A program made the translations under genes and the position numbers. From NCBI GenBank assembly GCA_965206765.1, contig OZ242222.1, positions 1,191,165 through 1,255,164 on the forward strand: a stretch of DNA of 64,000 nt, read 5' to 3'. The notes under the pieces were generated by a model. That model did not search any database, was not told where the DNA came from, and saw only the letters and a program-made list of their open reading frames with translations. Shown piece after piece: positions 10,300 to 64,000 of this stretch; the first letter of the stretch is position 1, and each line of letters opens with the position of its first letter. The stretch is from Candidatus Multivorans sp. (GTDB taxonomy: Bacteria > Acidobacteriota > Thermoanaerobaculia > Multivoradales > Multivoraceae).

Positions 10300-12084
10300 T
10301 CAGGCGCCGACTCGCAGGGTGCGTGTAATGAAGGAAGTCTGGCCGGCCACCTCGTCCCGCACCCCGATCGTCAGGCGTTGATCGCCCTCCTTCATGATCA
10401 ACGGCAGCGTGTAGGTGTAGAAGCTCTCCCGCGCACGCTCCAGATCCTCGGCCGGGATGGTGAGCTCGAACGGCTCGACCTGGGGCGGCGAGATGTCGCC
10501 GTTCGACGCCAGGGCCTGCACCCAGACCCGCGCTCGCAGGAGGTGCTCTCCGACCGTGCCCACCGGGACCAGGGTCATCTCGCCGATCGGCACCCTCACA
10601 TCGAGGTGGACGGTGTAGAGCCCCTTCTCCTCACGGCGAATCTCGTCGGACTTGACCAGGGTGATGTCCAGGTCGTTCTTCTCGTAGCCGAGCTTGAGCG
10701 CCGCCAGGGTCCCCTCGGTCATCTCCGTATCGATCGACTTGTCGCGGTAGCTCAGGCGATGCCTCACGAACCGGTCCCGCTTCAACCCCAGCCGTCTCTT
10801 CGCCTCGTTCGTCAACTCGACGTTGATCCTGTACCTCCGGCCGGTACCCGCATGACCGGGCTGGAAGCCGAGCGAGTAGTAGCTCGTGAAGTCGAGGGCG
10901 ACGCGGTTCAGGCCATCGCGGAAGTTGTTCGTGTTCACGATGTACTGACCGCCGGTTTCCTCGGCCATGTACATCACCGACGAGTGCATGTTGTCCCGGG
11001 CCACCGAGTCGATGTTGGACGAGAACGCCATGCCCTGCATGGACGCGTCCCGCGAGTTGATGCCCATCGGCCCGGAGGCGTCGACCGTGTAGAAGGAGAC
11101 TTCGTTCGCGTTCGCGGTGTCGACCAGATCCTGAAAGCGCCGGCTCGAGTCGTACTGCAGCGAATCGAGGAAGAAGTTCTGGTTGTAGCTCCCCGAGTCC
11201 ACCGCCCGGCCGCGTTCATCGAGCGCACTGAACATGTCCGCGCCTGCCCGCATCGGCAGACCGTCCGAGATGTACATGAAGGCCTTGCGGCCGGGCAGGC
11301 CGGCCAGCGAGATCACGGTGTCCTTCAGCCCGTCGAGGGTGAACTGCATGTCGTTGAAGATCGTCTGGGCGTAGATCCGGACGCGGCCCTGGACGTACTC
11401 GTAGTGGCGGTCCTCCTCGCCGATGTCGCGGATGATGTCGGCGCGGTCCGAGTCCCACTGCGTCCTGCCGCCGGTGTGCTTCTCGAGTTCATAGAGAGCG
11501 TTCGCAATCATCTGCGGATCGGTGGTGAAGTCCCGCTCGATCTTCACGGAGCGGTTGTAGCTCAACAGCATGACCCGATCCTCTCGCGTCACGTCCTTGC
11601 GCAGGAACTCGCGCACGTACCGGAACACCCGGTTGCGGTTCTGGGGCCGGATGTTCAGATGATCGATGTAGATCACCAGGTTGAGGCGTTCGTCCTCGGG
11701 CACGACACGACCCCGGCGCTCCAGTCCCGGCCGATCCACGAACCGGACTTCGGGTTCGTCCGGCACCAGGCCGGGAACGTCGCTTACCTTGACCCGATCG
11801 TTGATTTCGTAGAAGTTCGTGATCTTGATCGGGTCCTTCTCCTCTTTCAGAACGAAGTCGTTCCGGGTCAGGCCGGTGACTGGGTTGCCGTCCTTGTCGC
11901 GGACGAAGACCTGCACGTTCACGACCTTGATGTGGACGGACTCCTCGAAGGTGGCGCGAGGCGTTTGAGAGCGTCCCTGGCTGGGCCTCTCCTGGGCCGG
12001 AACGGCGACCGCCCCGATCAGCGGCAATCCGGCGATCAAGGCCGCGGCGTACAGAAGCGACACCTGGCGGAATGGTCGGTACAT
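10300..12084 (-). CDS. VWA domain-containing secreted protein (acidobacterial-type VWFA-related family, TIGR03436-like)
   Basis: The start is at MYRPFRQVSLLYAAALIAGLPLIGAVAVPAQE (signal peptide). The VWA region carries a MIDAS-like DxS/T. The 660-aa annotated ORF has a spurious 66-codon extension. Confidence 0.7.
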   Translation of the reverse strand: MYRPFRQVSLLYAAALIAGLPLIGAVAVPAQERPSQGRSQTPRATFEESVHIKVVNVQVFVRDKDGNPVTGLTRNDFVLKEEKDPIKITNFYEINDRVKVSDVPGLVPDEPEVRFVDRPGLERRGRVVPEDERLNLVIYIDHLNIRPQNRNRVFRYVREFLRKDVTREDRVMLLSYNRSVKIERDFTTDPQMIANALYELEKHTGGRTQWDSDRADIIRDIGEEDRHYEYVQGRVRIYAQTIFNDMQFTLDGLKDTVISLAGLPGRKAFMYISDGLPMRAGADMFSALDERGRAVDSGSYNQNFFLDSLQYDSSRRFQDLVDTANANEVSFYTVDASGPMGINSRDASMQGMAFSSNIDSVARDNMHSSVMYMAEETGGQYIVNTNNFRDGLNRVALDFTSYYSLGFQPGHAGTGRRYRINVELTNEAKRRLGLKRDRFVRHRLSYRDKSIDTEMTEGTLAALKLGYEKNDLDITLVKSDEIRREEKGLYTVHLDVRVPIGEMTLVPVGTVGEHLLRARVWVQALASNGDISPPQVEPFELTIPAEDLERARESFYTYTLPLIMKEGDQRLTIGVRDEVAGQTSFITRTLRVGA

Positions 12085-21989: not shown

Positions 21990-22020
21990 CTACGGAGCGA
22001 CGGGTGCGCCTGGAGGGTGG

Positions 22021-28569: not shown

Positions 28570-29967
28570 ATGGCTGCACCGACCACGTCCCGACCACGTC
28601 GCGAACTCTCGCCCTCACCGATCCGCCGAGCAGCGAGCGCGGTAGCGATCCTCACCTGCGCCGCGCTCTGCGCCACCTCACCGGCCTGGGCTTCCGACGA
28701 CTGGCCCCAGTTCCGGGGTCCCGGGATGAACCCCGCGGTCGAGGACAATCCGAACCTGCCGGATCGCTGGAGCCAGACGGAGAACGTCGAATGGGTGACC
28801 GAGGTCCCGGGTCTCGGCTGGTCGAGTCCGATCGTCTGGGGCAACCGGGTATTCCTCACCGCGGCGGTCGCCGAGGGCGACTTCGAACGTCCGCAGGCCG
28901 GGCTCTACGCCGCGCGCGGGCGGAGCGAACCGCCCCAGGCAGCCCACGACTGGCGGGTCTACTGCCTGGATCTTGCGACCGGCGAGGTTCTCTGGCGCCG
29001 CTCCGTCAGGACGGGGATCCCCGAGTTCCCGCGTCACCAGAAACAGACCTACGCCTCTGAAACCCCCACCACCGACGGCGAGCGCGTCTACGTCCGCTTC
29101 GGCGACCTCGGTGTCTACGCGTTCACGATGGATGGGGCCTCGGTCTGGAGCTTCGACACCCCCCACCGGGAGACGATGTGGGACTACGGCGCCGCGTCCT
29201 CGCCGGTGGTGCACGACGACCTGGTGATCATCCTCTACGACAACGAGGAGGAGTCCTGGATCGCCGCCCTCGACAAGGTCACCGGCAAGCAGCGCTGGCG
29301 CACCGACCGCGACGAGGTGTCGAGCTGGGCCACGCCCCTGGTGTGGACCAACGAAGTCCGTACCGAGATCGTCACCAACGGCAAGAACCGCATCCGCTCC
29401 TACGGCCTCGACGGCGAGCTGCTGTGGGAGATGAACGGTCGCATGTCGTGGGCAGCGATCGCGACACCCTTCGCCGCGCACGACATGGTCTACGTGAACT
29501 CCGGCTACTTCCAGGACCAGCGGCGGCCCGTGTTCGCGATCCGCCCGGGCGCCCTGGGTGACATCACCCTCGAAGAAGACGCCACCGAGAGCGAGTTCGT
29601 CGCCTGGCACCAGCCGAAGGCCGGCAACTACAACACCTCGCCCCTGGTCTACAAGGGCATCTACTACAGCCTGCTGGACCGCGGCTTCTTCGAGGCCTAC
29701 GACGCGCTGACGGGCGAACCGGTGTACGGCCGCCAGCGGGTCGCTCCGCGCGGCGGCGCCAGCTTCACCTCATCGCCGTGGGCCTACAACGACCGCGTGT
29801 TCGCGCTGAGCGAGCAGGGCGACACCTACGTGATCCGGGCCGGCGCCGAGTACGAGGTTCTGCACCTCAACAGCCTCGACGAGATGGCGATGGCATCGCC
29901 CGCGGTCGCGGGCGACCGGCTGCTGATCCGCACCCGGTCGAAGCTCTACAGCATCCGGAACGAATAG
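28570..29967 (+). CDS. Secreted PQQ-like beta-propeller repeat protein (BamB-like fold)
   Basis: ATG at 28570 with a GGAGG RBS. Signal peptide ...AILTCAALCATSPAWA and repeated W/G beta-propeller blades. It lies on the opposite strand between skp and lpxD. Confidence 0.7.
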   Translation: MAAPTTSRPRRELSPSPIRRAASAVAILTCAALCATSPAWASDDWPQFRGPGMNPAVEDNPNLPDRWSQTENVEWVTEVPGLGWSSPIVWGNRVFLTAAVAEGDFERPQAGLYAARGRSEPPQAAHDWRVYCLDLATGEVLWRRSVRTGIPEFPRHQKQTYASETPTTDGERVYVRFGDLGVYAFTMDGASVWSFDTPHRETMWDYGAASSPVVHDDLVIILYDNEEESWIAALDKVTGKQRWRTDRDEVSSWATPLVWTNEVRTEIVTNGKNRIRSYGLDGELLWEMNGRMSWAAIATPFAAHDMVYVNSGYFQDQRRPVFAIRPGALGDITLEEDATESEFVAWHQPKAGNYNTSPLVYKGIYYSLLDRGFFEAYDALTGEPVYGRQRVAPRGGASFTSSPWAYNDRVFALSEQGDTYVIRAGAEYEVLHLNSLDEMAMASPAVAGDRLLIRTRSKLYSIRNE

Positions 29968-29974
29968 CCGAAAG

Positions 29975-30526
29975 TTACTCCGCAGGCGTCACCGGATTGG
30001 CGGCGTTGTACCGCTCGATGATCAGGTTCGTAATGTCGGCGGCATCGGCCGAGTACAGCAATCCTCCCTGGAACTTGTTGAAGATCGCCGTGTAGCCGAA
30101 CTCCCGGCCGACCTGGGAGATGATCGGCAGAACGGCCTGCTCGATCTCGCCGAACATCTCGCCCTGGAGCTTCTGCATCTCCCGGTTCGCGTCGTCCTGG
30201 GAACGTTGCAGCCCGATGGTCATGTCCTCGAGCTGCTTCTCCATCTCCGCCAGGCGATCTTCAGCCAGGGTCAGGCGGCCGTCGTTGTACTGCTTCTGAA
30301 GTGCCGCCAACTGTTCCTGCTGACTCTGGAGCCGCGTCTGCATCTGGTCTCTGAGCTTGGTCAGTTCCTGGACCGCCACCTGGCCGCGGCCCGATTCCTG
30401 CAGTAGCCGCTCGACCTCGATCACCGCGATCTTGCTCTGGGCGAGGGCCGGTCCCGAGGTCATGGCCCCCAGGAGGACGGCGCCCGCGACGAGGGCGGCG
30501 CGGGTAACGAGTGTGTTGACTTTCAT
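29975..30526 (-). CDS. skp: OmpH/Skp periplasmic chaperone
   Basis: 183 aa, signal peptide plus Q/E/L-rich coiled-coil. It lies immediately downstream of bamA. Confidence 0.8.
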   Translation of the reverse strand: MKVNTLVTRAALVAGAVLLGAMTSGPALAQSKIAVIEVERLLQESGRGQVAVQELTKLRDQMQTRLQSQQEQLAALQKQYNDGRLTLAEDRLAEMEKQLEDMTIGLQRSQDDANREMQKLQGEMFGEIEQAVLPIISQVGREFGYTAIFNKFQGGLLYSADAADITNLIIERYNAANPVTPAE

Positions 30527-30546
30527 GGGGTGTTCTCCGTGGGACC

Positions 30547-32964
30547 TCAGAAGCTGGTCCCGATACTGAAGTCGAAGCTGTCGAAGCGTTCCCGGTCGAG
30601 ACCGCCAAGGCTGTCGAGGGGATTCAGGTTCGTAGCGTAGATGAACCGGAGCGGCGCTCCAAGAATGGGCACGTTAACCCGAAGTTCGATTCCGGCCGAC
30701 ATTCTCATGTGGTTGAAGTCGACGCTCTGGTCGTCGCCGTAGACGTTCCCCGCGTCGAAGAACGCGACCACCCGGAAGGGGCCGTTGACCAACGTGTGGT
30801 GCTCGAGGTTGATCACGACGCTCTTGTTGCCGCCCTGAGGGAAGCCGTTCGCGTCGAGCAGCGTCCGCCCGGTTTCCGGATCGCGCACCCAGATCGACCG
30901 GAAGGCGAAGCCCCGGAGGCTGTTCTCGCCGCCGAGCAGATAGCGGTCGAGGAAGAACAGTTGGCGGAGGTTGCCCTGGTCGTCCGCGCCGAAGGGCTTG
31001 ATGTAGCCGAGTTGAAGGTTCGCCCGGCCTACCGAACGCCACGCCCCCCGCGTCAACGGCACCGTGATCGCGGCCGTCAGCGAGGGCCGGATGAAGAACG
31101 ACTCGCCGCCGAGCGGGCCGCCGGCGTACTCGAGCGAGGCGATCAGACGTTTGCCCTGGGTCGGCTCGAGCCGGCTGTTGTGGCTGTCGTACTGGTAGGT
31201 CGCGGTGACCGAACTCCGGTTGAACTGGAACGCCTGTTCGATCGTGTCGCTCATGGTGTCTTCCTGCTCCTCCGGATTCTCGAAGAAGTAGAACGTCTGC
31301 GACTGGTAGCTCTCGATGTCCATGTTGCTGTAGGCCAACTGGACGAGCTCCCACCGGCGGAACGACCGTCCGAACGAGATGACGCCGCCCGCCTCCTTGC
31401 TGCGGTACCGCTGGTCGGCCAGCAGATCGAAATCCGTCTCCCGGTTGAACAACTGGACGCCGAAGTTCTGCGGCCGGTCCTTGACCCACGGCATGTAGTA
31501 GGACACGTCGAAGATGTCGCGGTAGCGCCCGGTCTGCATCGATACGCCGACCGTCTCGCCGCGGCCGAGGAAGTTGCGGGTGCGCAGAGCCGACTGGACG
31601 AAGAATCCGTCCAGCTCGCTGTAGCCGCCGCCGAACTGGACCTCGGTCTGACCCGCCTCCGTGCCCTTGACGACCAGATTGACCTTCTGGTTGCCGCTGT
31701 CGTAGTTGACCTCGACGGGATCGTCGTCGTTGACCACGTAGTACTCGAGCTGACTGAGCCGCAGCAGGCTGGTGCGGAGCATCCCCGAGTTGAAGACATC
31801 GCCCTCCTTCAGCAGCATCTGGCGGCGGAGAACCCGGTCCCGGGTGCGCTCGTTGCCCGTGAACTCGAGCCGCCCCACCCTGAACTGGTCGTTCTCCTCG
31901 ATCGTCACCAGCAGGTCCGCCACCAGATCCTCGCGTTCGACAATTTCCATCTTCACGTCCGCGAAGATGTAGCCGCTGTTGCGGTAGAGCTCTCCGATCT
32001 GCTCGACTCCCTCATCGACCACGTCCGAACGCAGCCAACCGTCCTGGGGTTCCTTGAACATCTGACGCAGCAGCCCATCCGGCAACACCTCGGCGCCTTC
32101 GATCTCGATCTGACCCAGCTTCCAGCGCGGCCCCTCCTCGATCGGCACAACCAGGGCAAGCTGCCGCTTGCGGCCCTCGAGCCGCTCCGCGTTCGGCTTG
32201 CGCTCGATCACCTCGAGTTCCGGCTCGCCGACCTCGACATCCTTGTAGCCGAAGCGGCGGTAGAGGCCCTTGACCTTGTCGAGATCCTCCTCGACGGTGG
32301 CCGAGTTGAAGACGTCGCGCTTGCGTATCCGGGTCAGTAGATTCGACTTCTTCGTCTTCTCCATCTGGCGGCGGAGCTTGCCGGTGGAGAACACCTCGTT
32401 GCCGTCGAAGTCGACCCGGCCGATCTTGACCCGGCCGCCCTCGTCGACGGTGATCAGAACGCGCTTCTCACCCAGGCCCGCGTCCTGCACCTCCACGTGG
32501 ATCCCGGCGAAGCGGTAGCCCCGCTCTTCGTAGAGCTTCTTGATCGCCTGCTCGAGACGGGCCACCTCGCCAAGGTCGAGCGGGGAACCCTCGTAGACCG
32601 AGATGCGCTCCCGATCCGTCATGTCGCCGATGTCGCTGCGCTTCAGCTTCTTCAGCCCGTCGTAGTCGAGTGAGGTCAGGAGCGGCCGTTCGGTGATCGT
32701 CACCCGAACGCCAACCCCTTCGCCCTCCGCCTCGGCCTCAACGGAGATGTCGTCGATCAGCTCACGCTCCCAGAGCTCCTTGATCCGGTCGTTCAGACGC
32801 CCCGGATCCCAGGGCTTTCCCGGCTCCAGGTCGAGGTAGTAGCTCAGGCTTTCTTCGCTCAGCGTCTCGACGCCGGTGTACTCGACCGACGCGATCGGGC
32901 GCCCGACAAGGAGTTGAGATGCGGCCGGCGACGCCACCAGGAGCACGGCCAAGAGCGCGCCCAT
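30547..32964 (-). CDS. bamA: Outer membrane protein assembly factor BamA
   Basis: POTRA repeats plus a C-terminal 16-strand barrel ending in the aromatic beta-signal (...SIGTSF). Start at the ATG at 32964 (MGALLAVLLVASPAAS). The exact start is uncertain. Confidence 0.85.
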   Translation of the reverse strand: MGALLAVLLVASPAASQLLVGRPIASVEYTGVETLSEESLSYYLDLEPGKPWDPGRLNDRIKELWERELIDDISVEAEAEGEGVGVRVTITERPLLTSLDYDGLKKLKRSDIGDMTDRERISVYEGSPLDLGEVARLEQAIKKLYEERGYRFAGIHVEVQDAGLGEKRVLITVDEGGRVKIGRVDFDGNEVFSTGKLRRQMEKTKKSNLLTRIRKRDVFNSATVEEDLDKVKGLYRRFGYKDVEVGEPELEVIERKPNAERLEGRKRQLALVVPIEEGPRWKLGQIEIEGAEVLPDGLLRQMFKEPQDGWLRSDVVDEGVEQIGELYRNSGYIFADVKMEIVEREDLVADLLVTIEENDQFRVGRLEFTGNERTRDRVLRRQMLLKEGDVFNSGMLRTSLLRLSQLEYYVVNDDDPVEVNYDSGNQKVNLVVKGTEAGQTEVQFGGGYSELDGFFVQSALRTRNFLGRGETVGVSMQTGRYRDIFDVSYYMPWVKDRPQNFGVQLFNRETDFDLLADQRYRSKEAGGVISFGRSFRRWELVQLAYSNMDIESYQSQTFYFFENPEEQEDTMSDTIEQAFQFNRSSVTATYQYDSHNSRLEPTQGKRLIASLEYAGGPLGGESFFIRPSLTAAITVPLTRGAWRSVGRANLQLGYIKPFGADDQGNLRQLFFLDRYLLGGENSLRGFAFRSIWVRDPETGRTLLDANGFPQGGNKSVVINLEHHTLVNGPFRVVAFFDAGNVYGDDQSVDFNHMRMSAGIELRVNVPILGAPLRFIYATNLNPLDSLGGLDRERFDSFDFSIGTSF

Positions 32965-38981: not shown

Positions 38982-40469
<1,488 letters not shown>

Positions 40470-40596
40470 CGTTGGCGCAGGGACATGCGCCTTCTGGCAC
40501 CGAACAGCGCAGAGTCGCCTACCGATCCCTCCGTGAGGCTGCGTCATTCGGTGATTGGCCCAGTTCGCGCCCTCGCACGGCGCTCCTGAAGCGATG

Positions 40597-41439
40597 TTAT
40601 CGCCCGGGCCCGACCCTCATGTCATCAACCCGAGCCACGGGCACAATCTCCACACCGCGCCCCTTGCTATAGAGGAACAGGTACCGCGAGTTACCGCCGA
40701 TAATGCTCCAAGAGTGGTGCGTGTAGGTACGCTCCGCCGTGTGTACCACAAAGGCGCTCCCGGGATTGTCCTTCACCTCGGCAATCCGAAGGTGGGCGCC
40801 ACCAAGGAGGCTTGAGGTAAACCCTATCGTGAACACCGCCAGGAAGATCATCACTCCCGTGCCGTGGAATCGCCTACTCAGGAGTACGACCGGAACATAG
40901 GCGATGCTGATCGCAATCAGGGGCATCCACCTGAGCAGCTGAAAACCTTCGTCACCCGGGGCATAGGAGAGAGCTACAAGCGCAACGAACGCCACTATGG
41001 TCAGCCAAGAGGTGATGGACCCCTGCCAAAAGCGCTCGTGCCGGTACACCGAAACTGCTGGCGAGGCAGTCTGCCATGGCTGCGCACCAAGAAGCCACCC
41101 GAGCATGCCGACGGCGGCATGCCGGAGTTGGTCGATGCTACTCGAGACGTAGTCAGTCACGTGGAAGAAGTCACCCACGTCCACGCCGAAATGTCCATAC
41201 AGGACGTGTACATGTAGGTATCCCGACACCAAGAAGGTCGCTGATAGCCACCAACCCAACAACGACAACTCCTTGGCCGGAAAGAGAGTCCTTCCTGACG
41301 ACGAAGAGGCTAGGGCACTACGCTGTCTCCGGAACTCCTTGACCGCAAGCCTGTAGACTTGCGCCACCCACTCCTCTACTTGGAACCGCGGAGGAATCAG
41401 TGGGCGCGTCTCCGTCTTCGCCCGCGGGACCCTCGTCAC
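40597..41439 (-). CDS. Hypothetical polytopic membrane protein (5 predicted TM helices plus a C-terminal soluble domain of about 60 aa)
   Basis: 280-aa ORF in the low-GC island with no recognisable motifs. Its start may be downstream of 41439, given the overlap with the upstream ORF. Confidence 0.5.
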   Translation of the reverse strand: MTRVPRAKTETRPLIPPRFQVEEWVAQVYRLAVKEFRRQRSALASSSSGRTLFPAKELSLLGWWLSATFLVSGYLHVHVLYGHFGVDVGDFFHVTDYVSSSIDQLRHAAVGMLGWLLGAQPWQTASPAVSVYRHERFWQGSITSWLTIVAFVALVALSYAPGDEGFQLLRWMPLIAISIAYVPVVLLSRRFHGTGVMIFLAVFTIGFTSSLLGGAHLRIAEVKDNPGSAFVVHTAERTYTHHSWSIIGGNSRYLFLYSKGRGVEIVPVARVDDMRVGPGR

Positions 41440-41821
41440 TCCCGACGCGCGACGACACGAAACTTGCCATCAGGAGGTACCAGCGCCGATACCGTCCACA
41501 CTGGTCGTTCGACCGAAGCCACTCCGCCCACTCCGTCTGCCGCGCCCGCCGGGTCAGGCGAGACTCCGTCACCAAGCGACTATCGAAGAGGTCACCTATT
41601 TCCTCACGGATTTCACGATCGAGAACGTCGTCTCTTCTTTCAACACCGAGACCGAAGTGCAATCGCAGTCTCAGAGCCGCCGCGTGCTGCAGCAGTCCGC
41701 GCGCTTGGCGCGCGCGGTCCACCAGCATTCTAGTCCGGAGAGGGTCGAGCCAACGTCGCAGTAGAGCAACCGCCGAAAGTGCGTAGACCAACCTAAGCAT
41801 AGAGTCCTTCCGTAGTGTCAC
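41318..41821 (-). CDS. Hypothetical protein (167 aa), island-encoded
   Basis: ORF with atypical codon usage. It has a hydrophobic N-terminus and a charged helical middle. It overlaps the downstream gene by about 120 nt, so the boundaries are uncertain. Confidence 0.35.
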   Translation of the reverse strand: MTLRKDSMLRLVYALSAVALLRRWLDPLRTRMLVDRARQARGLLQHAAALRLRLHFGLGVERRDDVLDREIREEIGDLFDSRLVTESRLTRRARQTEWAEWLRSNDQCGRYRRWYLLMASFVSSRVGSDEGPAGEDGDAPTDSSAVPSRGVGGASLQACGQGVPETA

Positions 41822-42192
41822 CGTGGGGCATACCTCGCTTCTAGCGGGTTGCCTGCGGCATCTTAGCCGGGCTTGATCGGGACGAGCCCCACCCCGCGGC
41901 TTGCTGGTCCCGGCAAGCAGGGCGCGCGACCGGCCGACTTACAAGCCGTACCTCCCGCGGACCGAAACGGGCGGCGGCTTGGCCTACGCGACGCTCCAGC
42001 GGATCCGCCTCAACGGTAGGGGGCACGACCAGGACAACTGGCGGGGAGCCTGGGGAACTCCGCCAACCTCAGGCAGAGGTCCCTCAGTCGCCGCCGAGTG
42101 TATGCTCGGCCACGGCCCCCGCCTGAGGGAGTCCGCTAAGAGCAACCCACCTTGACCCGGCGTAACAGCGCCAACGACGACCGCGCACCGCC

Positions 42193-43257
42193 ATGATCGC
42201 ATCGGCATCCGCCGCAGAACAACAGCTTCGCCGCTACTTGGCGGCGCCCCGGTACTCACCTCTCTATGTCGCAGGGGACGCCGTAGGTGTCTTGCCCTGC
42301 TTTCCTGCTTCGTCCTTCGACTGCTGCATGACCAGCCCCCCCTATTGGCGGAAGCGGCAGTACTCGGGCGGCGGTATCGGAATGGAGAGCACCTACGAAG
42401 ACTATGTCGACAAACTTCTCGCGGTGTTGGGAGAGGTCCGTCGCGTCCTTAAGCCCACGGGCTCGCTCTGGCTTAACCTGGGAGACTCCTACAAGAACAA
42501 GGGGCTGGCCGGCATTCCATGGCGAGTGGCATTGCGGCTCACGGACGAGCAGAACTGGATCCTCCGCAACAGTGTGGTGTGGAACAAGATCAAGGGCGGG
42601 CCAGACAACACCCGCGACCGTCTCCGAAACGTCCATGAAAACGTGTTTCACTTCGTCAAGGAACCGCGCGGGTACTACTACGACGTCGACTCGATTCGCA
42701 GCACACCGAAGACGACAAAGGTCGTCAATGGCTCCGTAGTCACGGCGACCGGCGTTCGCGGCGTGCGATATCGGAGGCAGATCGAACTCTCCACCGAACT
42801 CAGTGCGTCTGAGAGAAAGTCCGCCTCTCGGGCTCTCGCGGACATGCTCAACGCCGTGCGAGGTGGCACCGTGGCCGACTTCCGCATGATTATTCGTGGC
42901 AACCAGAGGACCACCCACTCGGACTCCGCAAGCGTCTCGGGTCGCGCCAAGGAGCTTCGCGATAAGGGCTTCTACTTCCTGAAGTACCACCCGAACGGCA
43001 GCAAGCCTGCGGACGTCTGGGACATCCTTCCTGAAGACACCCAGAAACGGCGAGCACATTTCGCACCTTACCCAGAGGATCTCTGCAAACTACCGATCCT
43101 CGCGACTTCGCCACCAGACGGCACGGTCCTTGACCCGTTCTGCGGCACAGGAACGACGATGCTAGTCGCACAGCGTCTAGGGAGAAAGTCGGTCGGCATC
43201 GATCTATCGGCCGAGTATCTGGAAATGGCCGAGATGCGAACGGGCTCATTGTTGTGA
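42193..43257 (+). CDS. Site-specific DNA methyltransferase (N4-cytosine/N6-adenine, beta class, PF01555-like)
   Basis: Motif IV TSPPYW precedes motif I DPFCGTGTT. That order is characteristic of beta-class amino-MTases, and an S-P-P-Y tetrapeptide favours N4-cytosine specificity. Confidence 0.85.
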   Translation: MIASASAAEQQLRRYLAAPRYSPLYVAGDAVGVLPCFPASSFDCCMTSPPYWRKRQYSGGGIGMESTYEDYVDKLLAVLGEVRRVLKPTGSLWLNLGDSYKNKGLAGIPWRVALRLTDEQNWILRNSVVWNKIKGGPDNTRDRLRNVHENVFHFVKEPRGYYYDVDSIRSTPKTTKVVNGSVVTATGVRGVRYRRQIELSTELSASERKSASRALADMLNAVRGGTVADFRMIIRGNQRTTHSDSASVSGRAKELRDKGFYFLKYHPNGSKPADVWDILPEDTQKRRAHFAPYPEDLCKLPILATSPPDGTVLDPFCGTGTTMLVAQRLGRKSVGIDLSAEYLEMAEMRTGSLL

Positions 43258-44102
43258 GCCAGGTACTCGAGCTCTTCGGGCACGGTGCGGACGAGGCAAC
43301 CGATTGGTCTCGGGTGGTTGGGGAGCAGCTCTGCCCCTACCTAGGCTCGGCATGCATCAAGACCCGGAAGAGTCAACCCGAAGTGGCCATTGGAACCTGT
43401 TGCGTCAGCTACGGCCGCGAGGAGCGGACTCCGGTGATCTGTCCGAACCGGCTCCTGAGAGGCGGAAAGGTAATCATCGACTGCATGCGCTACTTGCGGT
43501 CCTACGGACCGGGGGACGACCTGCACGTCGTTCCAGAAGTCGGAGTGCCGGGCGGAAGTGCCGACTACTTCTTGGTGTCTGTGAGCGGGGGCTCAGTCGG
43601 GGACTTTGTCGGGATCGAGTTGCAAGCACTTGACACGACGGGAACGGTCTGGCCGGCTCGTCAGCGGTTCCTAGGGCGAGTCGGACTACGCCAACGCGCC
43701 GAAGCAGAAGCAAGCAGTCGCAGATACGGCATGAACTGGAAGATGACCGCGAAGACGACTCTTGTTCAGCTACACCACAAGGTCCGAACTTTCGAGGCCC
43801 TGGGCCGGCAACTCGTACTTGTCTTGCAGGACGAGCTTCTTGGCTACTTGCAGAGGGAGTTCACCTTCGGGCACGTAGGCCATGCTTCCGACAACGACCC
43901 GATGCAGTTCCACGCCTACAACGTGCAACGGGGCCAAGCAGGCAGCGGGTTACATCTCGCAGAACGGCTGAGCACCGACACCAAGGGAGTCCGCCGCTGC
44001 TTGGATCTTCAGACTGAGGCGCGAGTTGACACCGACCATCTGGTCGCGCAGCTGCGCAGAAAGCTAGGTCCCAGCACCCTCTTCCGCCCAAGAGGAACGT
44101 AG
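43254..44102 (+). CDS. Candidate cognate type II restriction endonuclease (Cys-rich N-terminal metal-binding region)
   Basis: GTG start at 43254 overlaps the MTase TGA, forming a GTGA that implies translational coupling. It has 5 Cys in the first 65 aa (CPYL...C...CC...C) and a possible D...E-x-Q/K catalytic core (DFVGIELQ). Confidence 0.5.
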   Translation: MSQVLELFGHGADEATDWSRVVGEQLCPYLGSACIKTRKSQPEVAIGTCCVSYGREERTPVICPNRLLRGGKVIIDCMRYLRSYGPGDDLHVVPEVGVPGGSADYFLVSVSGGSVGDFVGIELQALDTTGTVWPARQRFLGRVGLRQRAEAEASSRRYGMNWKMTAKTTLVQLHHKVRTFEALGRQLVLVLQDELLGYLQREFTFGHVGHASDNDPMQFHAYNVQRGQAGSGLHLAERLSTDTKGVRRCLDLQTEARVDTDHLVAQLRRKLGPSTLFRPRGT

Positions 44103-44109
44103 GCACGCC

Positions 44110-44290
44110 TCCAGCTTTGCCCTAACAGGTTCCTTTAGCCAAGACAGGACGCCGAGGTTGCCCTCGCGAGCCGCGGCGTGTCGCCTCCACCGCAGTTAGG
44201 AAAGCGAACGGCGCGGTAGTACGCGGGAACGTCGGAGCCGGCGGCGTCGATTCGAGCGACTTCCCAGGCCCCCTAGCCCCCCATAGCGGA
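44110..44290 (-). pseudogene. Decayed duplicate of the 3' end (last ~55 codons) of the hypothetical gene at 44962..45969
   Basis: About 75% nucleotide identity to 44975..45140. The translation retains ...YYRA.RF......REGNLGVL.WL.EP... in the same order as the intact C-terminus. Confidence 0.7.
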
Positions 44291-44954
44291 CCGGTGCCGA
44301 AGTTGGCGGCAGGTCTAGTACCTGCCATATCGACTCACGGTCGAGGAAGTCGTCGAACCGACGAACGTGCTCGACCTGGTTTCCAATCCCGATGAAGTTC
44401 CACCCCAACGCGCGACTCGCTGCCCTGTCCCATGACTGGTTTCCGAAGTAGAACCTCCGCTCGGCTGGTTTGTCAGCCATGGCTCTTCGCTCGGCGATCT
44501 GCATGATCTCGATCCGGCGAATGGCGTCTGAAGCGGATGACAAGTGCAACATGTCGGGGTCGAGGCCGATCGCTCGGAGCTTCATCGCCGCCGTCTCAGG
44601 CCAACCGCCGGTCGCAACGGCCACGCGGACTTCCGGGTGCGCAATGAGTCGGTTCACGAAGGCACGGGCGCCGGGGATCTCCGGTAGTCGGCCATCCCGA
44701 TCGCTGAGATAGTCCCGGACCAGGGCGACAAAGGCCTTCTTGACCGAGGCACGGGCAGCGAAGCGGTCGATTTCGACGGCGTGCCGATCGAGGATCTCGT
44801 CCAGGATGCCGCTGTCCGTGGCGTGCTGGTAGCTGGACCAGTCCTCATCGACCCCGATGTCGAGCACGTCTCGAACCGCCTGGGCGTACAAGACTCCGTC
44901 GAACTCGTCCGACTCGACGAGGGTTCCGTCGACGTCGAAGACGATCAGGTGCAT
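44196..44954 (-). CDS. HAD-superfamily hydrolase
   Basis: Start MHLIVFDVDGTL (HAD motif I), motif II S/T, and a K...GD/N region (WNFIGIGNQ). The C-terminal ~30 codons read through into the duplicated fragment. Confidence 0.7.
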   Translation of the reverse strand: MHLIVFDVDGTLVESDEFDGVLYAQAVRDVLDIGVDEDWSSYQHATDSGILDEILDRHAVEIDRFAARASVKKAFVALVRDYLSDRDGRLPEIPGARAFVNRLIAHPEVRVAVATGGWPETAAMKLRAIGLDPDMLHLSSASDAIRRIEIMQIAERRAMADKPAERRFYFGNQSWDRAASRALGWNFIGIGNQVEHVRRFDDFLDRESIWQVLDLPPTSAPVRYGGLGGLGSRSNRRRRLRRSRVLPRRSLS

Positions 44955-44961
44955 GGACTTC

Positions 44962-45969
44962 CTAGCTTCCACGGTTCGTAGCCAGCCACTCCTCCAGGGC
45001 CACTCTGGCCGGTTCCTCCAGCCAGGGCAGGACGCCCAGGTTGCCCTCGCGGGCGGCGGCGTCTATGTCGACTTCGTTGCGGTCGAGAAAGCGGGCGGCG
45101 CGGTAGTACAGGGGGCCCTCGGAGTCGGCGGCGTCGCCGAGTTCGATCAGGTGGCCGGCGAGTTCGCGGGTGCGGCGGAGCCTGGGCGGCAGCGGTGGCG
45201 CGGGCAGGGGTCTGGGCAGGCGAGGCTGGAGACCCGCGGCTTCGGCTGCGCATTGGAACGCCGCGGCGTCGGGCGGCGACTCGCCGCCGTGAAACAGGGC
45301 GTCGAAGGCCTCGGGCCAGGTGGATTGCAGGCGTTCGGCGAGCAGGCGCCGCTCGCGGGCGCCGAGCTGCATCGCGCGCGGTACGACGAGACGGGCGCCG
45401 GCGGCGGCGAGTCGCGCCATCGCCGGCGCCAGGAGGCCCGGCTGGTCGGTCCAGTCGGCAACGAGCGGCCAGACGACGGTCGCGCCGGCCAGCGGACGCG
45501 GTTCGAACGGGAGGCCAGGCTGCCGACGCTCCCTGAACTGGCTTCGCAGCGCGGCAGCGTGGCGGACCAGGGCGTCGAGGAGGTCGACTGCGACGACGGC
45601 GTTGGGGGGCAGGTCGGCAAGTCTTGGCGCGGCCACCTCGCCAAGGCTCGACCCGCCGACCGGGATGTTCGCTACCACTTGAATCAGGAGCGGCACTCCG
45701 GCACCGGCCGCGGCCTCGACGATGCGGGTACGGAGGGGCTCGTGATCCGCCGGTAGCGGGGGAACGTAGACGACATCGGTCACCGAGTGCACCCCTTCGG
45801 CGGCCTCGGCGCCGGCCGGCAAGGGTCCGGCCGTCGACGGCGGCAGGCCGCCGGTGGCGAGATCGCACCAGAGGTCGTCGCTGCCGGCCGCGGGCCAACG
45901 GGGAAAGCTGTGACGGATCCAGAGGTTCGCCGGTTCGGCGACGTGTTCGCGGAGGTTGAGAGCGCTCAC
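44962..45969 (-). CDS. Hypothetical protein (335 aa) with no recognised family
   Basis: Clean high-GC3 ORF, Pro/Ala/Leu-rich, with no catalytic signature that I can assign. Its 3' end is the source of the duplication at 44110..44290. Confidence 0.55.
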   Translation of the reverse strand: MSALNLREHVAEPANLWIRHSFPRWPAAGSDDLWCDLATGGLPPSTAGPLPAGAEAAEGVHSVTDVVYVPPLPADHEPLRTRIVEAAAGAGVPLLIQVVANIPVGGSSLGEVAAPRLADLPPNAVVAVDLLDALVRHAAALRSQFRERRQPGLPFEPRPLAGATVVWPLVADWTDQPGLLAPAMARLAAAGARLVVPRAMQLGARERRLLAERLQSTWPEAFDALFHGGESPPDAAAFQCAAEAAGLQPRLPRPLPAPPLPPRLRRTRELAGHLIELGDAADSEGPLYYRAARFLDRNEVDIDAAAREGNLGVLPWLEEPARVALEEWLATNRGS

Positions 45970-45974
45970 GCCCT

Positions 45975-46150
45975 GACGCTCCCGAACCAGATGCGGGCGG
46001 GACGCCCGCGTTCCCAGGGCAGAGAGGTCATGGGGCGACGTTCCCGAACCAGATGCGGGCGAGACGCCCGCGTTCCCAGGGCAGAGAGGTCACGGGGCGA
46101 CGTTCCCGACGCGGATGCGGGCAAGATGCCCGCGTTCCCAGGACGGACGG
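45975..46150. repeat. Tandem array of about three 62-bp units, each carrying a GC-rich hairpin (GCGGGC[G/A]-NGA-[C/T]GCCCGC) plus the conserved flank GTTCCCAGG
   Basis: The period is 62 bp (CGAACCAGATGCGGGC at 45983 and again at 46045). The third unit has diverged and abuts the ribE stop. Confidence 0.85.
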
Positions 46151-46151
46151 C

Positions 46152-46892
46152 TCAACGCCGGGCCGACTCGAGGGCGGCTGCGACGGCCGCCTCGACGGAC
46201 TTCTGCACGTACCGGGCGAGAACGTCGCCCTCGACGTTGACCCGGTCTCCAGGCTTCAGGTCCGAGAGGGTCGTGACCTCGAGCGTGTGCGGAATCAGGG
46301 CGACGTCGAAGGTCTCTTCGTCGAGCGCCGCGATCGTCAGGCTGACGCCGTCGATGGTCACGCTGCCCTTGAGAACGAGGCTGTTCTCGAGCTCGGCGGG
46401 GACTTCGAACGTGATGACCCGGTTGTCTCCGAGTTCCTCGACTTTCGCCACCCGGGTCGTCGTGTCGACGTGTCCCTGGACCCAGTGGCCGCCAAGCGGA
46501 TCGCCGGCCGAGAGCGGCGGCTCCAGGTTCACCTCATCGCCGTCCTGAAGCGTGCCCAGCGTCGTTCGGCTGAGGGTTTCAGGAGACAGATCGAAGGCGG
46601 ACCACGCCGGGATGGCGTCTTCCGCGCCTTTGCCCGCAACTCCGTTCGCGCCGCCCTGCTCCACCACGGTAAGGCAAACGCCGGAGACCGAGAGGCTGGC
46701 GCCCAAATCCAGCCGCGACGCAAGCCTCTCGGAGTGCCCGATCACCACGCGGGAACCCGTGGGGCGCGTCCTCGCGCCACACGCGACCCAGTCCGAGCGC
46801 CCGTCTTCGGGCGGTCGGATGGCACCGTGGCGCCCCAGGGCCTTTGGGGCCTCGACTACCCGGCCAAACTCCGTGACAATTCCGGTAAACAT
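46152..46892 (-). CDS. ribE: Riboflavin synthase alpha subunit
   Basis: MFTGIV start and a duplicated lumazine-binding barrel. Confidence 0.8.
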   Translation of the reverse strand: MFTGIVTEFGRVVEAPKALGRHGAIRPPEDGRSDWVACGARTRPTGSRVVIGHSERLASRLDLGASLSVSGVCLTVVEQGGANGVAGKGAEDAIPAWSAFDLSPETLSRTTLGTLQDGDEVNLEPPLSAGDPLGGHWVQGHVDTTTRVAKVEELGDNRVITFEVPAELENSLVLKGSVTIDGVSLTIAALDEETFDVALIPHTLEVTTLSDLKPGDRVNVEGDVLARYVQKSVEAAVAAALESARR

Positions 46893-53437: not shown

Positions 53438-53490
53438 CAGCGCTTCGGACCGGATGCGGGCAGGATGCCCGCGTTCCCAGGATCGGAGCG
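53438..53490. repeat. Dispersed single copy of the 45975..46150 repeat unit (GGATGCGGGCAGGATGCCCGCGTTCCCAGGA)
   Basis: About 85% identical to the third unit of the tandem array, with the same hairpin and GTTCCCAGG flank. It is intergenic, between hisS and the Uma2 gene. Confidence 0.8.
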
Positions 53491-61273: not shown

Positions 61274-64000
61274 CACCGCTCGCTCCGAATCGCCTGCAGG
61301 TCGTGCAGCCGCGTCCCGTCCTTGCGCTGGACCCGCAACTCTTCGTAGGGGCCGCACACCCGCCGGTAGTCGCAGTACCGGCATTCGTCCCTCGCCGGCG
61401 CCGCGGGCAGGAAGCCGTCCTCCAGCGCTCCGTCGACCGTCTTCAGCAGCCGACGGGCGGCGCCGCGGCTCCGCTCGTCGAGCGGCACGGCCACCGTGCT
61501 GTAGCCGCCCCGCTGGGTGCAGTAGAAGAGCCGCCCCGAAACCACCTCCCGCTCGAGCACGTCCTCCGCGGCCAGACTGTAGAGGACCGGCTGCAGCACC
61601 TTGCCGCCGCCGATCACCAGGCCGGCGCCGGCATGAACGGCGCGACCGGTCTTGTGGTCGGTCACTCGCAGCCGACCGTCCGCGTCCTCCTCCACGAGGT
61701 CGATCGAGCCACGCAGCCGCGCCCCGTCGAGCACCTCCGCCGGCGCCCGCTTGCTGCGCGGATCCCGGTCCGCGGACCGCCTGAGACCGAAGGAGAGTTC
61801 GGCGTGGACCGGCTTCCACTGGCCGCCCTCGTCCGCCACCTGCCGCAACCAGCCGCGCAGGTCGGCCCGCAAGCCCTCGAACTCCGCCCTCCAGACGCGC
61901 TCGATCGGCGGCGCGAGTTCCTCCCGGTAGTCACGCTCGCTCTGAACGAGCACCTCATCCAGCAACTCGAAGACCGTCTCCAGGCGGCTCAGCACCACCG
62001 GCAACAGGTCCGCCGCCTCCAGGGCGCCAAACAGGCGGAACTGGATCTCGTGGAAGATGCTGCCCCGGGTCATCGGGTTCATCTGCTCGAGCTGGACGAG
62101 TTCCTTGCGCGGCCTGAGGTACAGCACCGCCTGCAGGAAGAACCGGTAGGGGCAGGCGGCGAAGTTCTGGAGGGCGGTCGGCGAGTAGGAGCGCACGCCG
62201 ATCCGCTGGGCAGCGAGCGACTCCCTGGCCTCCGGGCTCGCGTCCACGAGACCGTCGACCGGGAACCAGGGTCGCCGCCAGCGCCGGCCACGCGCCTGCA
62301 GGGCGCGTTTCAGGTGCGGGTTCGACTCCAGGAGAAAGCGCGCCCGCCCTCTGCGCTCCGCGACCGGGGCGCCGGGACCCAGGAGCGGTTGCAGCAGGGC
62401 GAGATCGAACTCGGCCTCGTCGACCGCGTCCTCGGCTTCGGCGGGCGCCGGCCAGCCGACCACCGCGGCGCCGGCGGCCGCGGCGCGCCGGCCGAGCGCG
62501 TCGAGGTCCGGCAGGCTGCCTTCGGCGCCCCGCAGCACGTCGAGCGCGTAAAGCGACGGCACCCGTGCCCGCCCCTGCACCAGGTCGACCCGCGGATACG
62601 AAACGACCAGCCAGCGACTCGCGGCGCCGATGGCGAGGCGAAGCAGCAGTTGCTCCCGCCGGGTGCGGCCCAGATCCTCGGTGAGCCGGTAGCCCGCTTG
62701 CCGCAGGGTCCGGCGACCTTCGTCGAGCAGCAGCGGATCCTCCTTCGCCCGCCGTGGGAACACCCCCTCGGCCAGGCCCGGCACGAACACGACGTCGAAG
62801 CTCCGTCCCGCCGCCTCCTCGACGCCACCGACGAAGACCCGGCCGAACCGCCGTTTCGGCGGCCGGCTGCGGCTGAATCCCAAGCGCTCGCCCAGGATCC
62901 GCTCCACCTCGGGCAAGCCGACCTCGTCGACCTGCGCCAGGGGTCGGAGCTCGGCAAGCACCTCGAGCACGGTCTCCGGCCGCCGCAACGCCATCGTCGC
63001 CAACTCCTGCAGACGCTCGAGCCACCATCCCCAGTCCGCGCGCTCGGGCAGGGCGTCGAGGAACTCGATCAGGGGCAGCGCGAACGTCTGGAGCGTTTCC
63101 AGGCGCCCGATCTGCCGCTCCAGATAGCCCCTGTGGCCTTCGTCCTCGTCCCCGGCCTCGCGCAGTTGCAGCCGGAACTCCGCGCCGAGACCCGCCAGCC
63201 GCTTCTTCCAGCGTTCGGCCCCGCCGACCACGGCGGCATCGACCAGCAGGCGCTCCCACTGGGAAGGGACGCGGAGCGCGCCGGCCGGCGCCGCCTCTTC
63301 CTGGGTTTCGCGAGCCTCCGCTGCGCTGTCGGTCACAGAGTGCGGGCCAGACGCCCGCCGAGACAACTCCGGCGACTTGAGGACGAGTTGTTCGCCCGCC
63401 GGCTCGACCCAGGGCGCCTCGCGCTGCGGGGGTCCGCCGCCCTTGGCCGGTTCGGGAGTCTGGCCGAGCGACAGGTACTCGGCGAAGCGGCTCGCCGAGA
63501 GTCTCTCCCCCACGCACGCCAGCAGGGCCAGGAAGGCGCGGCCGGCCGGATTCGGGCGCAACGCGCCCCGGGTGACGTAGGCGGGGATGCCGGCGCGGCT
63601 GAGCGCGTCCTCCACCAGGGGCAGGTAGGCGGCCGGCTGGCGAAGCAGGATCGCCATGCGATCGAAGTTGAGGCCCCCGGCCGCGGCACGGTGGATGCGC
63701 CGGGCGATCTCGACGCACTCCTGGCCCTCGCCGGCCGCCGAGAACAGGTCGACCGAAGAGCCGGCCGGCACATCTGCGGCACTGCGTGGAAGCGCGGCCA
63801 TCCTGCCCGCACCTGGGGGCGCGGGCGTCTCGCCCGCATCCGTCGTTCCGCCAAGCGGCGAGGACGCGTCCACACCGGTCTCAAAGACGAAGCGCTGGAC
63901 CCGATCCAGCCGCCGACCGCCCGAAGTCCCGGCGACGACCGCTTCCTCCCGGTCGAGATCGATCACCGCCCCTTCGCCGAGCAGCGAGCCCAGCCACTCC
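61273..64000 (-). CDS. addB: Helicase/nuclease subunit B-like protein (AddB/RecB-family nuclease domain with Fe-S cysteines); the N-terminus lies beyond the window end
   Basis: The first Cys (NFAACPYRF) and the nuclease motif (DLVEEDADGRLRVTDHKTG) are followed by a C-terminal CRYCDYRRVCGPYE triad. This is the AddB Fe-S cluster arrangement. Confidence 0.75.
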   Translation of the reverse strand, partial: EWLGSLLGEGAVIDLDREEAVVAGTSGGRRLDRVQRFVFETGVDASSPLGGTTDAGETPAPPGAGRMAALPRSAADVPAGSSVDLFSAAGEGQECVEIARRIHRAAAGGLNFDRMAILLRQPAAYLPLVEDALSRAGIPAYVTRGALRPNPAGRAFLALLACVGERLSASRFAEYLSLGQTPEPAKGGGPPQREAPWVEPAGEQLVLKSPELSRRASGPHSVTDSAAEARETQEEAAPAGALRVPSQWERLLVDAAVVGGAERWKKRLAGLGAEFRLQLREAGDEDEGHRGYLERQIGRLETLQTFALPLIEFLDALPERADWGWWLERLQELATMALRRPETVLEVLAELRPLAQVDEVGLPEVERILGERLGFSRSRPPKRRFGRVFVGGVEEAAGRSFDVVFVPGLAEGVFPRRAKEDPLLLDEGRRTLRQAGYRLTEDLGRTRREQLLLRLAIGAASRWLVVSYPRVDLVQGRARVPSLYALDVLRGAEGSLPDLDALGRRAAAAGAAVVGWPAPAEAEDAVDEAEFDLALLQPLLGPGAPVAERRGRARFLLESNPHLKRALQARGRRWRRPWFPVDGLVDASPEARESLAAQRIGVRSYSPTALQNFAACPYRFFLQAVLYLRPRKELVQLEQMNPMTRGSIFHEIQFRLFGALEAADLLPVVLSRLETVFELLDEVLVQSERDYREELAPPIERVWRAEFEGLRADLRGWLRQVADEGGQWKPVHAELSFGLRRSADRDPRSKRAPAEVLDGARLRGSIDLVEEDADGRLRVTDHKTGRAVHAGAGLVIGGGKVLQPVLYSLAAEDVLEREVVSGRLFYCTQRGGYSTVAVPLDERSRGAARRLLKTVDGALEDGFLPAAPARDECRYCDYRRVCGPYEELRVQRKDGTRLHDLQAIRSER

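Follow-up and report, generated by a model that had tools for sequence, protein, structure and literature searches.

What is the block of low guanine-plus-cytosine (GC) content that lies directly downstream of lysS in the 64,000-nucleotide stretch of Candidatus Multivorans sp. analysed here (contig OZ242222.1, positions 1,191,165 to 1,255,164; hereafter the window), and do its genes belong together? Very probably, positions 40472-44983 of the window form an accessory segment of composite make-up in a slot that is prone to recombination and is bounded by lysS and a conserved open reading frame (ORF), ORF335, and the core of this segment is a Type II restriction-modification (R-M) cassette. The R-M system itself is routine, being one more member of a large annotated cassette family, here from a little-studied acidobacterial class, the Thermoanaerobaculia. 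Beyond it, the locus provides a cleanly delimited hotspot for defence and toxin-antitoxin genes, reaching from lysS to a conserved gene, in which the cargo turns over rapidly among close relatives without a mobility gene. It also calls for a correction of gene structure, by which two apparent orphan genes become one frameshifted gene. The product of that gene belongs to an uncharacterised membrane-protein family, which is the sole potentially new element at the locus; this family is defence-adjacent in most of its readable contexts and could be tested cheaply by phage challenge.

A predicted methyltransferase-nuclease pair forms the core of the segment

The cassette consists of two genes:

42193-43257, plus strand: beta-class DNA amino-methyltransferase of 354 amino acids (aa), predicted to make N4-methylcytosine (PF01555, PADLOC MTase_II, motifs)
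43254-44102, plus strand: predicted NotI-family Type II restriction endonuclease, 282 aa, GTG start (homolog names, fold match, invariant residues)

The methyltransferase matched Pfam PF01555 (N6_N4_Mtase) with an E value of 1.8e-48 and PADLOC MTase_II with 1.3e-66. Its motif IV, TSPPYW, occupies residues 47-52, ahead of DPFCGTGTT at residues 314-322, within which lies motif I, FCGTG (residues 316-320). Since motif IV precedes motif I, an order conserved in all of the cassette methyltransferase homologs examined, the enzyme belongs to the beta class. The profile match and the motif positions thus agree with a first-pass annotation of this DNA, made from the letters alone, which had described a beta-class amino-methyltransferase with TSPPYW followed by DPFCGTGTT. 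TSPPYW was kept in seven of the seven cassette methyltransferases examined, which came from four phyla or classes. The tetrapeptide SPPY is common to most bacterial N4-cytosine methyltransferases (PMC8885841), and N6-adenine methyltransferases carry DPPY (PMC8885841; PMC10406627). Because motif IV contains SPPY, the product is probably N4-methylcytosine by this rule. The best solved relatives are TTHA0409 (2zie), the rotifer N4CMT (8s9n/8s9m), CcrM and M.PvuII (1boo). Compared with M.PvuII, N4CMT and TTHA0409, the window enzyme is alike in PF01555, in the position of motif IV before motif I and in the SPPY tetrapeptide, whereas the central part is little alike, the HMMER matches falling mainly at the two ends.

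The downstream gene encodes the 282-aa protein that had been noted earlier as Cys-rich, and a count bears this out: there are seven Cys residues, six of them within the first 77 positions. Homologs at E <= 0.001 numbered 3203, most of them 278-295 aa long, with more than 50% identity even in Firmicutes, Chloroflexi, Hydrogenedentes and Proteobacteria; those that are named carry the NCBI name 'NotI family restriction endonuclease'. In an alignment of 24 diverse homologs, including the window protein, C27, C34, C49 and C63 were invariant, as were D104, E122 and Q124, which lie in the contexts ...GGSxDY... and ...DFVGxExQ.... The nuclease matched PADLOC REase_II (1.7e-8), and 23 of the 24 aligned family members matched Pfam NotI (PF12183) at E <= 0.01, the best of them at 1.5e-8. 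An AlphaFold2 model was built from the 24-sequence alignment (predicted local distance difference test (pLDDT) 77.7, predicted template modelling score (pTM) 0.81). A Foldseek search of the PDB with this predicted model returned DNA-bound NotI as the only significant match (3c25_A; E 7.7e-8, probability 1.00, template modelling (TM) score 0.59), the next match having an E value of 0.12.

NotI possesses an Fe-Cys4 motif and, as in BglII, a Gln that replaces the catalytic Lys (PMC4081073). The model and the invariant residues suggest that the window protein is a compact NotI relative with a PD-(D/E)XK core in which Gln takes the place of the usual Lys (D104...E122-x-Q124), and that C27, C34, C49 and C63 constitute a putative N-terminal four-cysteine metal site. 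Compared with NotI (PDB 3c25/3bvq; PF12183; Type IIP), the predicted fold and the N-terminal Cys4 are alike and D104, E122 and Q124 fit the D...ExQ pattern described for NotI, whereas the identity in the structural alignment is only 16% and the nuclease, at 282 aa, is about 100 residues shorter (the 3c25 chains list as 353-354 residues).

The same pair occurs in unrelated hosts

The junction between the methyltransferase and nuclease genes reads TTGTTGTGAGCC, in which TGA, the stop, and GTG, the start, overlap within GTGA. The same gene order and 4-nucleotide (nt) overlap were found at L093, a locus from an unrelated 5.4-Mb genome. At L092, from the chromosome of Priestia megaterium, a ~350-aa N6_N4 methyltransferase likewise ends 4 nt past the start of a ~285-aa nuclease gene. 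The methyltransferases at these two loci are 73% (L093) and 61% (L092) identical to the window protein. The pair is also annotated together on six plasmids from Klebsiella, Enterobacter, Serratia and Acinetobacter; on one of them, pBspH9 of Acinetobacter sp. NEB 394, the overlap is 8 nt by its annotation. Over these cassettes, identity to the window proteins ranged from 45 to 57% for the nuclease and from 61 to 73% for the methyltransferase. The window pair therefore resembles, in gene order and motifs, a widespread cassette of a ~350-aa SPPY methyltransferase and a ~280-aa NotI-family nuclease, and the 4-nt stop/start overlap is alike in L092, L093 and the clade relatives described below. The GC content of the cassette relative to its host or locus differed among these settings: ~0.60 versus 0.67-0.70 in this clade, 0.54-0.56 versus 0.69 in L093, and 0.33-0.34 versus 0.33 in Priestia (L092). 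This pattern fits horizontal spread followed by partial amelioration.

Methyltransferase motifs, an adjacent predicted nuclease gene and the occurrence of the pair in unrelated hosts, three hallmarks of Type II R-M systems, are thus present. As part of an overall explanation that we hold to be very probable, positions 42193-44102 are predicted to encode an ordinary two-gene Type II R-M system of a large, already annotated cassette family. The coupled Type II arrangement put forward in the first-pass annotation is upheld by the methyltransferase class, the NotI-like predicted fold, the invariant residues and the conservation of the pair across phyla.

Several points weigh against this assignment. 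The R-M function is predicted from sequence and a fold model, and SPPY holds for 'most', not all, N4-cytosine enzymes. The window nuclease scored 18.5 bits against Pfam NotI (PF12183), below the 22-bit gathering cut-off, and NotI was not reached when the nuclease sequence and its family profile were searched against the PDB. The relationship to NotI rests on the predicted fold, the weaker Pfam matches and motif logic, and the apparent correspondence of the Cys4 and D/E/Q residues to the sites of NotI is one of sequence pattern. In addition, a test of palindrome under-representation, in which 124 kb of R-M-bearing sequence was compared with 43 kb from R-M-free relatives, gave no signal specific to R-M-bearing genomes.

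The weak Pfam match, together with a function known here from sequence and model, would also suit a different reading, in which the methyltransferase is functionally solitary (orphan) and the 282-aa ORF is what remains of a nuclease that is decaying or has lost its activity. Signs of decay are seen in two accessory genes at this locus, namely the frameshifted membrane-protein gene of the window and a split OLD-family gene in one relative, L002. However, the nuclease ORF is full length and retains all of the residues that are invariant across the 24 homologs; it is 79-90% identical to the orthologs of relatives, a divergence like that of core genes, and the 4-nt overlap is preserved. We consider a solitary methyltransferase unlikely on these grounds, and return to the two-gene R-M system.

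In such a system, by analogy with what is known of the families, the methyltransferase would methylate cytosine at N4 in a short specific site and thereby protect the host chromosome. The GTGA overlap would couple the translation of the methyltransferase to that of the nuclease. The nuclease, presumably as a homodimer, would cut that site wherever it lacks the methyl mark, such as on phage or plasmid DNA entering the cell.

The recognition site should not be assumed to be GCGGCCGC, because the identity to NotI is 16% and the protein is shorter than NotI, which in full length has 383 aa. The window contains 18 GCGGCCGC sites, a count that is uninformative either way on specificity. At a nuclease identity of 45-57%, specificity may also differ between members of the cassette family. 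Reading the recognition site from depleted palindromes was tried and rejected: CTAG, CAGCTG, AGATCT, CACGTG and AAGCTT were equally depleted in the relatives lacking the R-M system. Their observed/expected ratios in the pooled 124 kb were 0.34 for CTAG, 0.18 for CAGCTG, 0.11 for AAGCTT, 0.30 for AGATCT and 0.34 for CACGTG, and the depletion is a clade-wide property. Acinetobacter sp. NEB 394, the host of pBspH9, was formerly Bacillus species H, the source of the BspH systems (PMC8259958); it produces BspHI and has several R-M systems (PMC8259958, PMC9122589). No statement linking the pBspH9 homolog to BspHI (TCATGA) was found in the literature and its supplements, and this homolog is a lead only.

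The segment is sharply bounded and its cargo differs among relatives

The segment lies between two conserved genes, and its left part is a slot of variable content:

38982-40469, plus strand: lysS, class II lysyl-tRNA synthetase, conserved left flank (Pfam tRNA-synt_2, E 1.8e-91)
40472-42190, no strand: variable slot (window-only sequence, other cargo at that place in relatives)
44962-45969, minus strand: ORF335, conserved, family not assigned, right flank (65-93% identity in all relatives); carries repeat copy B at 44984-45136

In 500-bp windows, GC content was 0.59-0.64 across 40500-44750, versus 0.67-0.76 on both flanks. Over the whole 64 kb, 1-kb windows had a mean GC content of 0.683 (sd 0.031); the minimum, 0.598, fell inside the methyltransferase gene, and 40.5-44.9 kb was the longest low-GC run. 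GC content at third codon positions (GC3) was 0.62-0.76 in the ORFs of the island, versus 0.83-0.90 in hpt, pnp, lysS, ORF335 and ribE; that of ribD was 0.79. The drop in GC content and the shift in codon usage that had been described downstream of lysS are therefore both evident in the sliding GC and GC3 values.

We compared the locus with its counterparts in five related lineages, represented by L001-L008, of which L001-L006 are metagenomic relatives. The closest species representative in GTDB is L007, a metagenome-assembled genome of Candidatus Multivorans, whose lysS is 95% identical to that of the window. DNA homology with all of the relatives stops at 40469-40471, the end of lysS. In L001-L006, the gene order is lysS, slot, methyltransferase, nuclease, (HAD), ORF335, ribE, ribD, ftsY, aroB, aspS, hisS, where HAD denotes a hydrolase gene described below; homology to the window breaks at 40471 and resumes at 42179-42191, 2-14 bp ahead of the methyltransferase ATG. 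In L001, L002 and L004, the slot is occupied by a gene for an OLD-family ATPase-TOPRIM protein of 670 aa (PADLOC Old, 9.4e-24), and in L005 and L006 no gene was called in it. In L007, the interval from lysS to ORF335 encodes a HigB toxin and an HTH-HEPN(Swt1) protein and contains no methyltransferase, nuclease or HAD gene; the homology of L007 to the window resumes exactly at 44984. In L008 (lysS 84%), a HATPase_c/DUF4325 protein and a CoiA_N protein are followed by the HAD gene, and the R-M cassette is missing. The five lineages thus have four different contents, including R-M, OLD, and HigB with HEPN, and no cross-homology was found among the slot cargoes of different lineages.

In this comparison, the closest lineage, L007, and one other of the five lack the block, as expected of the accessory segment that the first-pass annotation had proposed. 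Composition does deviate from that of the flanks, and the block is not shared by all relatives. As to the extent given earlier, 40470-44960, its left edge coincides with the end of lysS and stands, whereas the right edge should be moved to 44983, the point at which homology to L007 is regained. Within these limits, the low-GC region comprises three separately variable modules: the slot cargo (40472-42190), the cassette (42191-44102), and the HAD gene with its scar (44101-44983).

In L001, L004 and L005, the methyltransferase is 86-91% and the nuclease 79-90% identical to the window proteins; for the core genes of the same relatives, the values are 82-93% for lysS, 77-92% for pnp and 74-89% for ribD. 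The divergence of the cassette tracks that of the core genes, which indicates that the cassette is old at this site and not a recent arrival. A point against this conclusion is that core-like identities would be compatible either with vertical inheritance or with repeated exchange among close relatives.

The same observations raise the question of whether the block is native core DNA, inherited vertically, whose low GC content arises from gene-specific constraints. The cassette, the HAD gene and ORF335 are syntenic in L001-L006, with a divergence that tracks lysS and ribD, and the GC content of the cassette is ~0.60 in all three lineages that keep it, as such a history would predict. This explanation is, however, largely refuted by L007, despite its 95% identical lysS, and by L008, since both carry entirely different genes between the same flanks. 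Moreover, the same cassette is found in Firmicutes and on proteobacterial plasmids, and GC3 lies 0.10-0.25 below that of the neighbouring core genes. A native origin of the block is thus quite improbable, and the composite accessory segment remains the preferred reading.

On the latter reading, the presence of the cassette at the site would predate the split of the lineages of the window, L001, L004 and L005, and the L007 and L008 lineages would have lost it or exchanged it for other genes, while the slot at 40472-42190 would turn over faster than the cassette. The exchange probably proceeds by homologous recombination in the conserved flanks and not by an integrase. Sharp conserved flanks and a different cargo in each lineage are features shared with defence-island hotspots; the locus differs from them in that it is very small (2-4.5 kb), contains no mobility genes, and has an R-M module stably kept in several lineages.

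The replacement genes of L008 (11502-13497) were also inspected. They encode a 449-aa HATPase_c + DUF4325 (STAS-like) protein, with a partial match to PADLOC DrmA (E 1e-28), and a 181-aa CoiA_N protein alongside, and together the two genes may constitute a defence module.

Two apparent orphan genes are one frameshifted membrane-protein gene

The part of the variable slot next to lysS contains the following features:

40597-41821, minus strand: one frameshifted gene for a membrane protein of ~407 aa, uncharacterised family (homolog alignments and tblastn)
41318-41821, minus strand: ORF167, N-terminal half of the membrane-protein gene
40597-41439, minus strand: ORF280, C-terminal half of the membrane-protein gene

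A word-indexed search with ORF280 returned only a 221-aa self match, and the family surfaced only in an exhaustive HMMER search of 1.84 billion cluster representatives. This search yielded 235 homologs, counted as representatives of 50%-identity clusters, most of which are 380-440 aa long, and ORF280 aligns with their C-terminal ~250 residues. When the homologs were compared with the window by tblastn, their N-terminal domain matched the frame of ORF167 (frame 2, 41731-41474) and the remainder matched the frame of ORF280 (frame 3, 41388-40609). Because a stop at 41470-41472 ends the frame of ORF280, the shift lies between about 41389 and 41469. Dropping one G of the GGG at 41441-41443 (minus strand) produces a 407-aa ORF that aligns with the family from end to end. 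Proteins of the family begin with a helical domain, continue with about five transmembrane helices and end in a small beta domain. The gene had no match in Pfam, NCBIfam, PADLOC or PHROG, and the family had none among PDB folds. The first-pass annotation had reported two genes without a recognisable family on the opposite strand. The count has to be corrected to one frameshifted gene; the lack of a recognisable family holds for Pfam, NCBIfam, PADLOC and PHROG, yet 235 remote homologs exist.

A real mutation is somewhat more likely than an assembly error as the cause of the frameshift, because six flanking core genes can be aligned from end to end with those of relatives, without a frameshift. 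A homopolymer error of the long-read assembly is possible. The OLD-family gene of L002 (6545-8556, on a contig of 8x coverage) is likewise split, into pieces of 490 aa and 185 aa, and is intact in L001 and L004; this split may be either pseudogenisation or a long-read indel error, and it bears on how the frameshift in the window is read.

The membrane-protein family often lies near defence genes but is separate from the cassette

We recovered eight contexts of the membrane-protein family outside the window, of which five lie beside or among defence or toxin-antitoxin genes. In L096, the family member is 1 bp from an MmeI-type R-M enzyme. In L090 it adjoins a PDDEXK_4 protein (PADLOC candidate PDC-S26, 2.5e-112), and in L091 a DUF4143 ATPase (PADLOC candidate PDC-S01, 7.9e-98). 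The member in L097 is surrounded by PanA, PIN/FitA, HicB, RelB/ParE, a resolvase, a DDE transposase, GmrSD_N and an AAA_15/DUF3696 ATPase, and L098 represents the same neighbourhood. In L095, a transposase fragment lies alongside the family member, with PIN/Phd and Mut7-C/DUF433 modules within ~5 kb. The other three contexts (L087, L088 and L089) are short contigs of 1.6-5.9 kb with nothing informative nearby. The window copy itself takes up the slot in which relatives have an OLD nuclease or HigB/HEPN.

By analogy with these neighbours, the family might be a stand-alone anti-phage or abortive-infection membrane effector, although we consider this doubtful. The link to defence is weak, being guilt by association in a handful of cases, and it justifies a test, not a claim. 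The earlier suggestion that the neighbouring unknown genes are defence components thus gains a little from the five of eight defence or toxin-antitoxin contexts, and loses in that there is a single frameshifted gene, which varies independently of the cassette.

This independent variation also bears on whether the methyltransferase, the nuclease and the membrane protein could act together as a single defence system of several components, in which the membrane protein would be the effector or sensor. The genes are adjacent, and elsewhere the family also adjoins an MmeI-type R-M enzyme (L096) and PADLOC candidates (L090, L091). However, the cassette occurs without the membrane gene in L001-L006, L092, L093 and on the plasmids, and the membrane gene occurs without the cassette in L091, L095 and L097. 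Furthermore, the membrane gene is on the opposite strand and is frameshifted in the window, and the break in homology with relatives falls between this gene and that of the methyltransferase. Since the cassette and the membrane gene are each found without the other, they do not make up a single system; no evidence tying the membrane-protein gene to the R-M system was found in our comparisons, and a three-component system is extremely improbable. The R-M cassette is accordingly treated here as a unit of two genes.

A duplicated gene end brackets the HAD gene

The third module, to the right of the cassette, contains a gene and a repeat:

44196-44972, minus strand: HAD-family hydrolase, likely true start Met at 44954 (Pfam Hydrolase/HAD)
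44101-44249, no strand: degenerate duplicate (copy A) of the ORF335 3' end, just past the nuclease gene (direct repeats D3/D4)

A direct repeat of ~150 bp, with ~77% identity between its copies (44101-44249 and 44984-45136), lies on either side of the HAD gene. Besides ORF335 of the window, copy A matches the 3' end of this gene in L001, L004, L005, L007 and L008, and in this genome copy A adds an Arg-rich C-terminal tail to the HAD ORF. It is the scar of an illegitimate recombination or insertion event. The HAD gene is present in L001-L004 and L008; L005 and L006 retain only fragments of it, and L007 lacks it. At the loci with these fragments (L005, 8832-10122; L006, 3758-5048), a PhyH (phytanoyl-CoA dioxygenase) gene lies between the nuclease gene and ORF335, and this arrangement likewise points to turnover on the right of the cassette.

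Low GC content and a 150-bp direct repeat could also mark a classical integrase-mobilised genomic island or the remnant of a prophage or transposon, and an integrase fragment and a DDE transposase do occur a few kb to the right of the locus in L002. In the window, however, scans of the island ORFs against the family library found no integrase or transposase families, no tRNA lies within 18 kb of the island (the nearest is at 22018), and an Rfam scan of 36-50 kb gave no match, in keeping with the earlier remark that neither an integrase nor a tRNA target is visible. No repeats flanking the whole island were found in the window: the sole repeat brackets the HAD gene only and is a duplicated gene end, not an attachment (att) site. 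In addition, the nuclease had no match in 50,697 phage records. An integrase-mobilised island is thus very improbable, and a slot refilled by recombination in its flanks is preferred.

The intergenic region and other features of the window

One further feature lies between the membrane-protein gene and the cassette:

41822-42192, no strand: divergent intergenic region of 371 bp separating the membrane-protein and methyltransferase genes, presumed promoter region

No ORF for a controller (C) protein, and no convincing ORF of any kind, was found in this region. It had no match in a homology search of the relatives and the rest of the window, nor in a scan for the sigma-70 consensus, and promoter and terminator consensus scans gave nothing exceeding the shuffled background. 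Part of it, 41850-42050, shows strong three-base GC periodicity, one phase reaching 0.8-0.9 as in native core genes; this stretch has no credible ORF and no homolog, and may be an older coding remnant or chance.

Elsewhere in the window, two further dips in GC content to ~0.63 (1-kb windows) occur at 10751-12000 and 29751-32250, both shorter and shallower than the island. Between ORF335 and ribE (45959-46154), a 62-nt unit is present in three tandem copies, each with a GC-rich hairpin, GCGGGCGrGAyGCCCGC, ahead of GTTCCCAGG. More copies were found at 53453-53481 and 63812-63840 of the window and at 20140-20181 of the relative L001. The pattern of the unit gave five matches versus zero expected by chance, and the repeat looks like a dispersed intergenic element of the repetitive extragenic palindromic (REP) or miniature inverted-repeat transposable element (MITE) kind.

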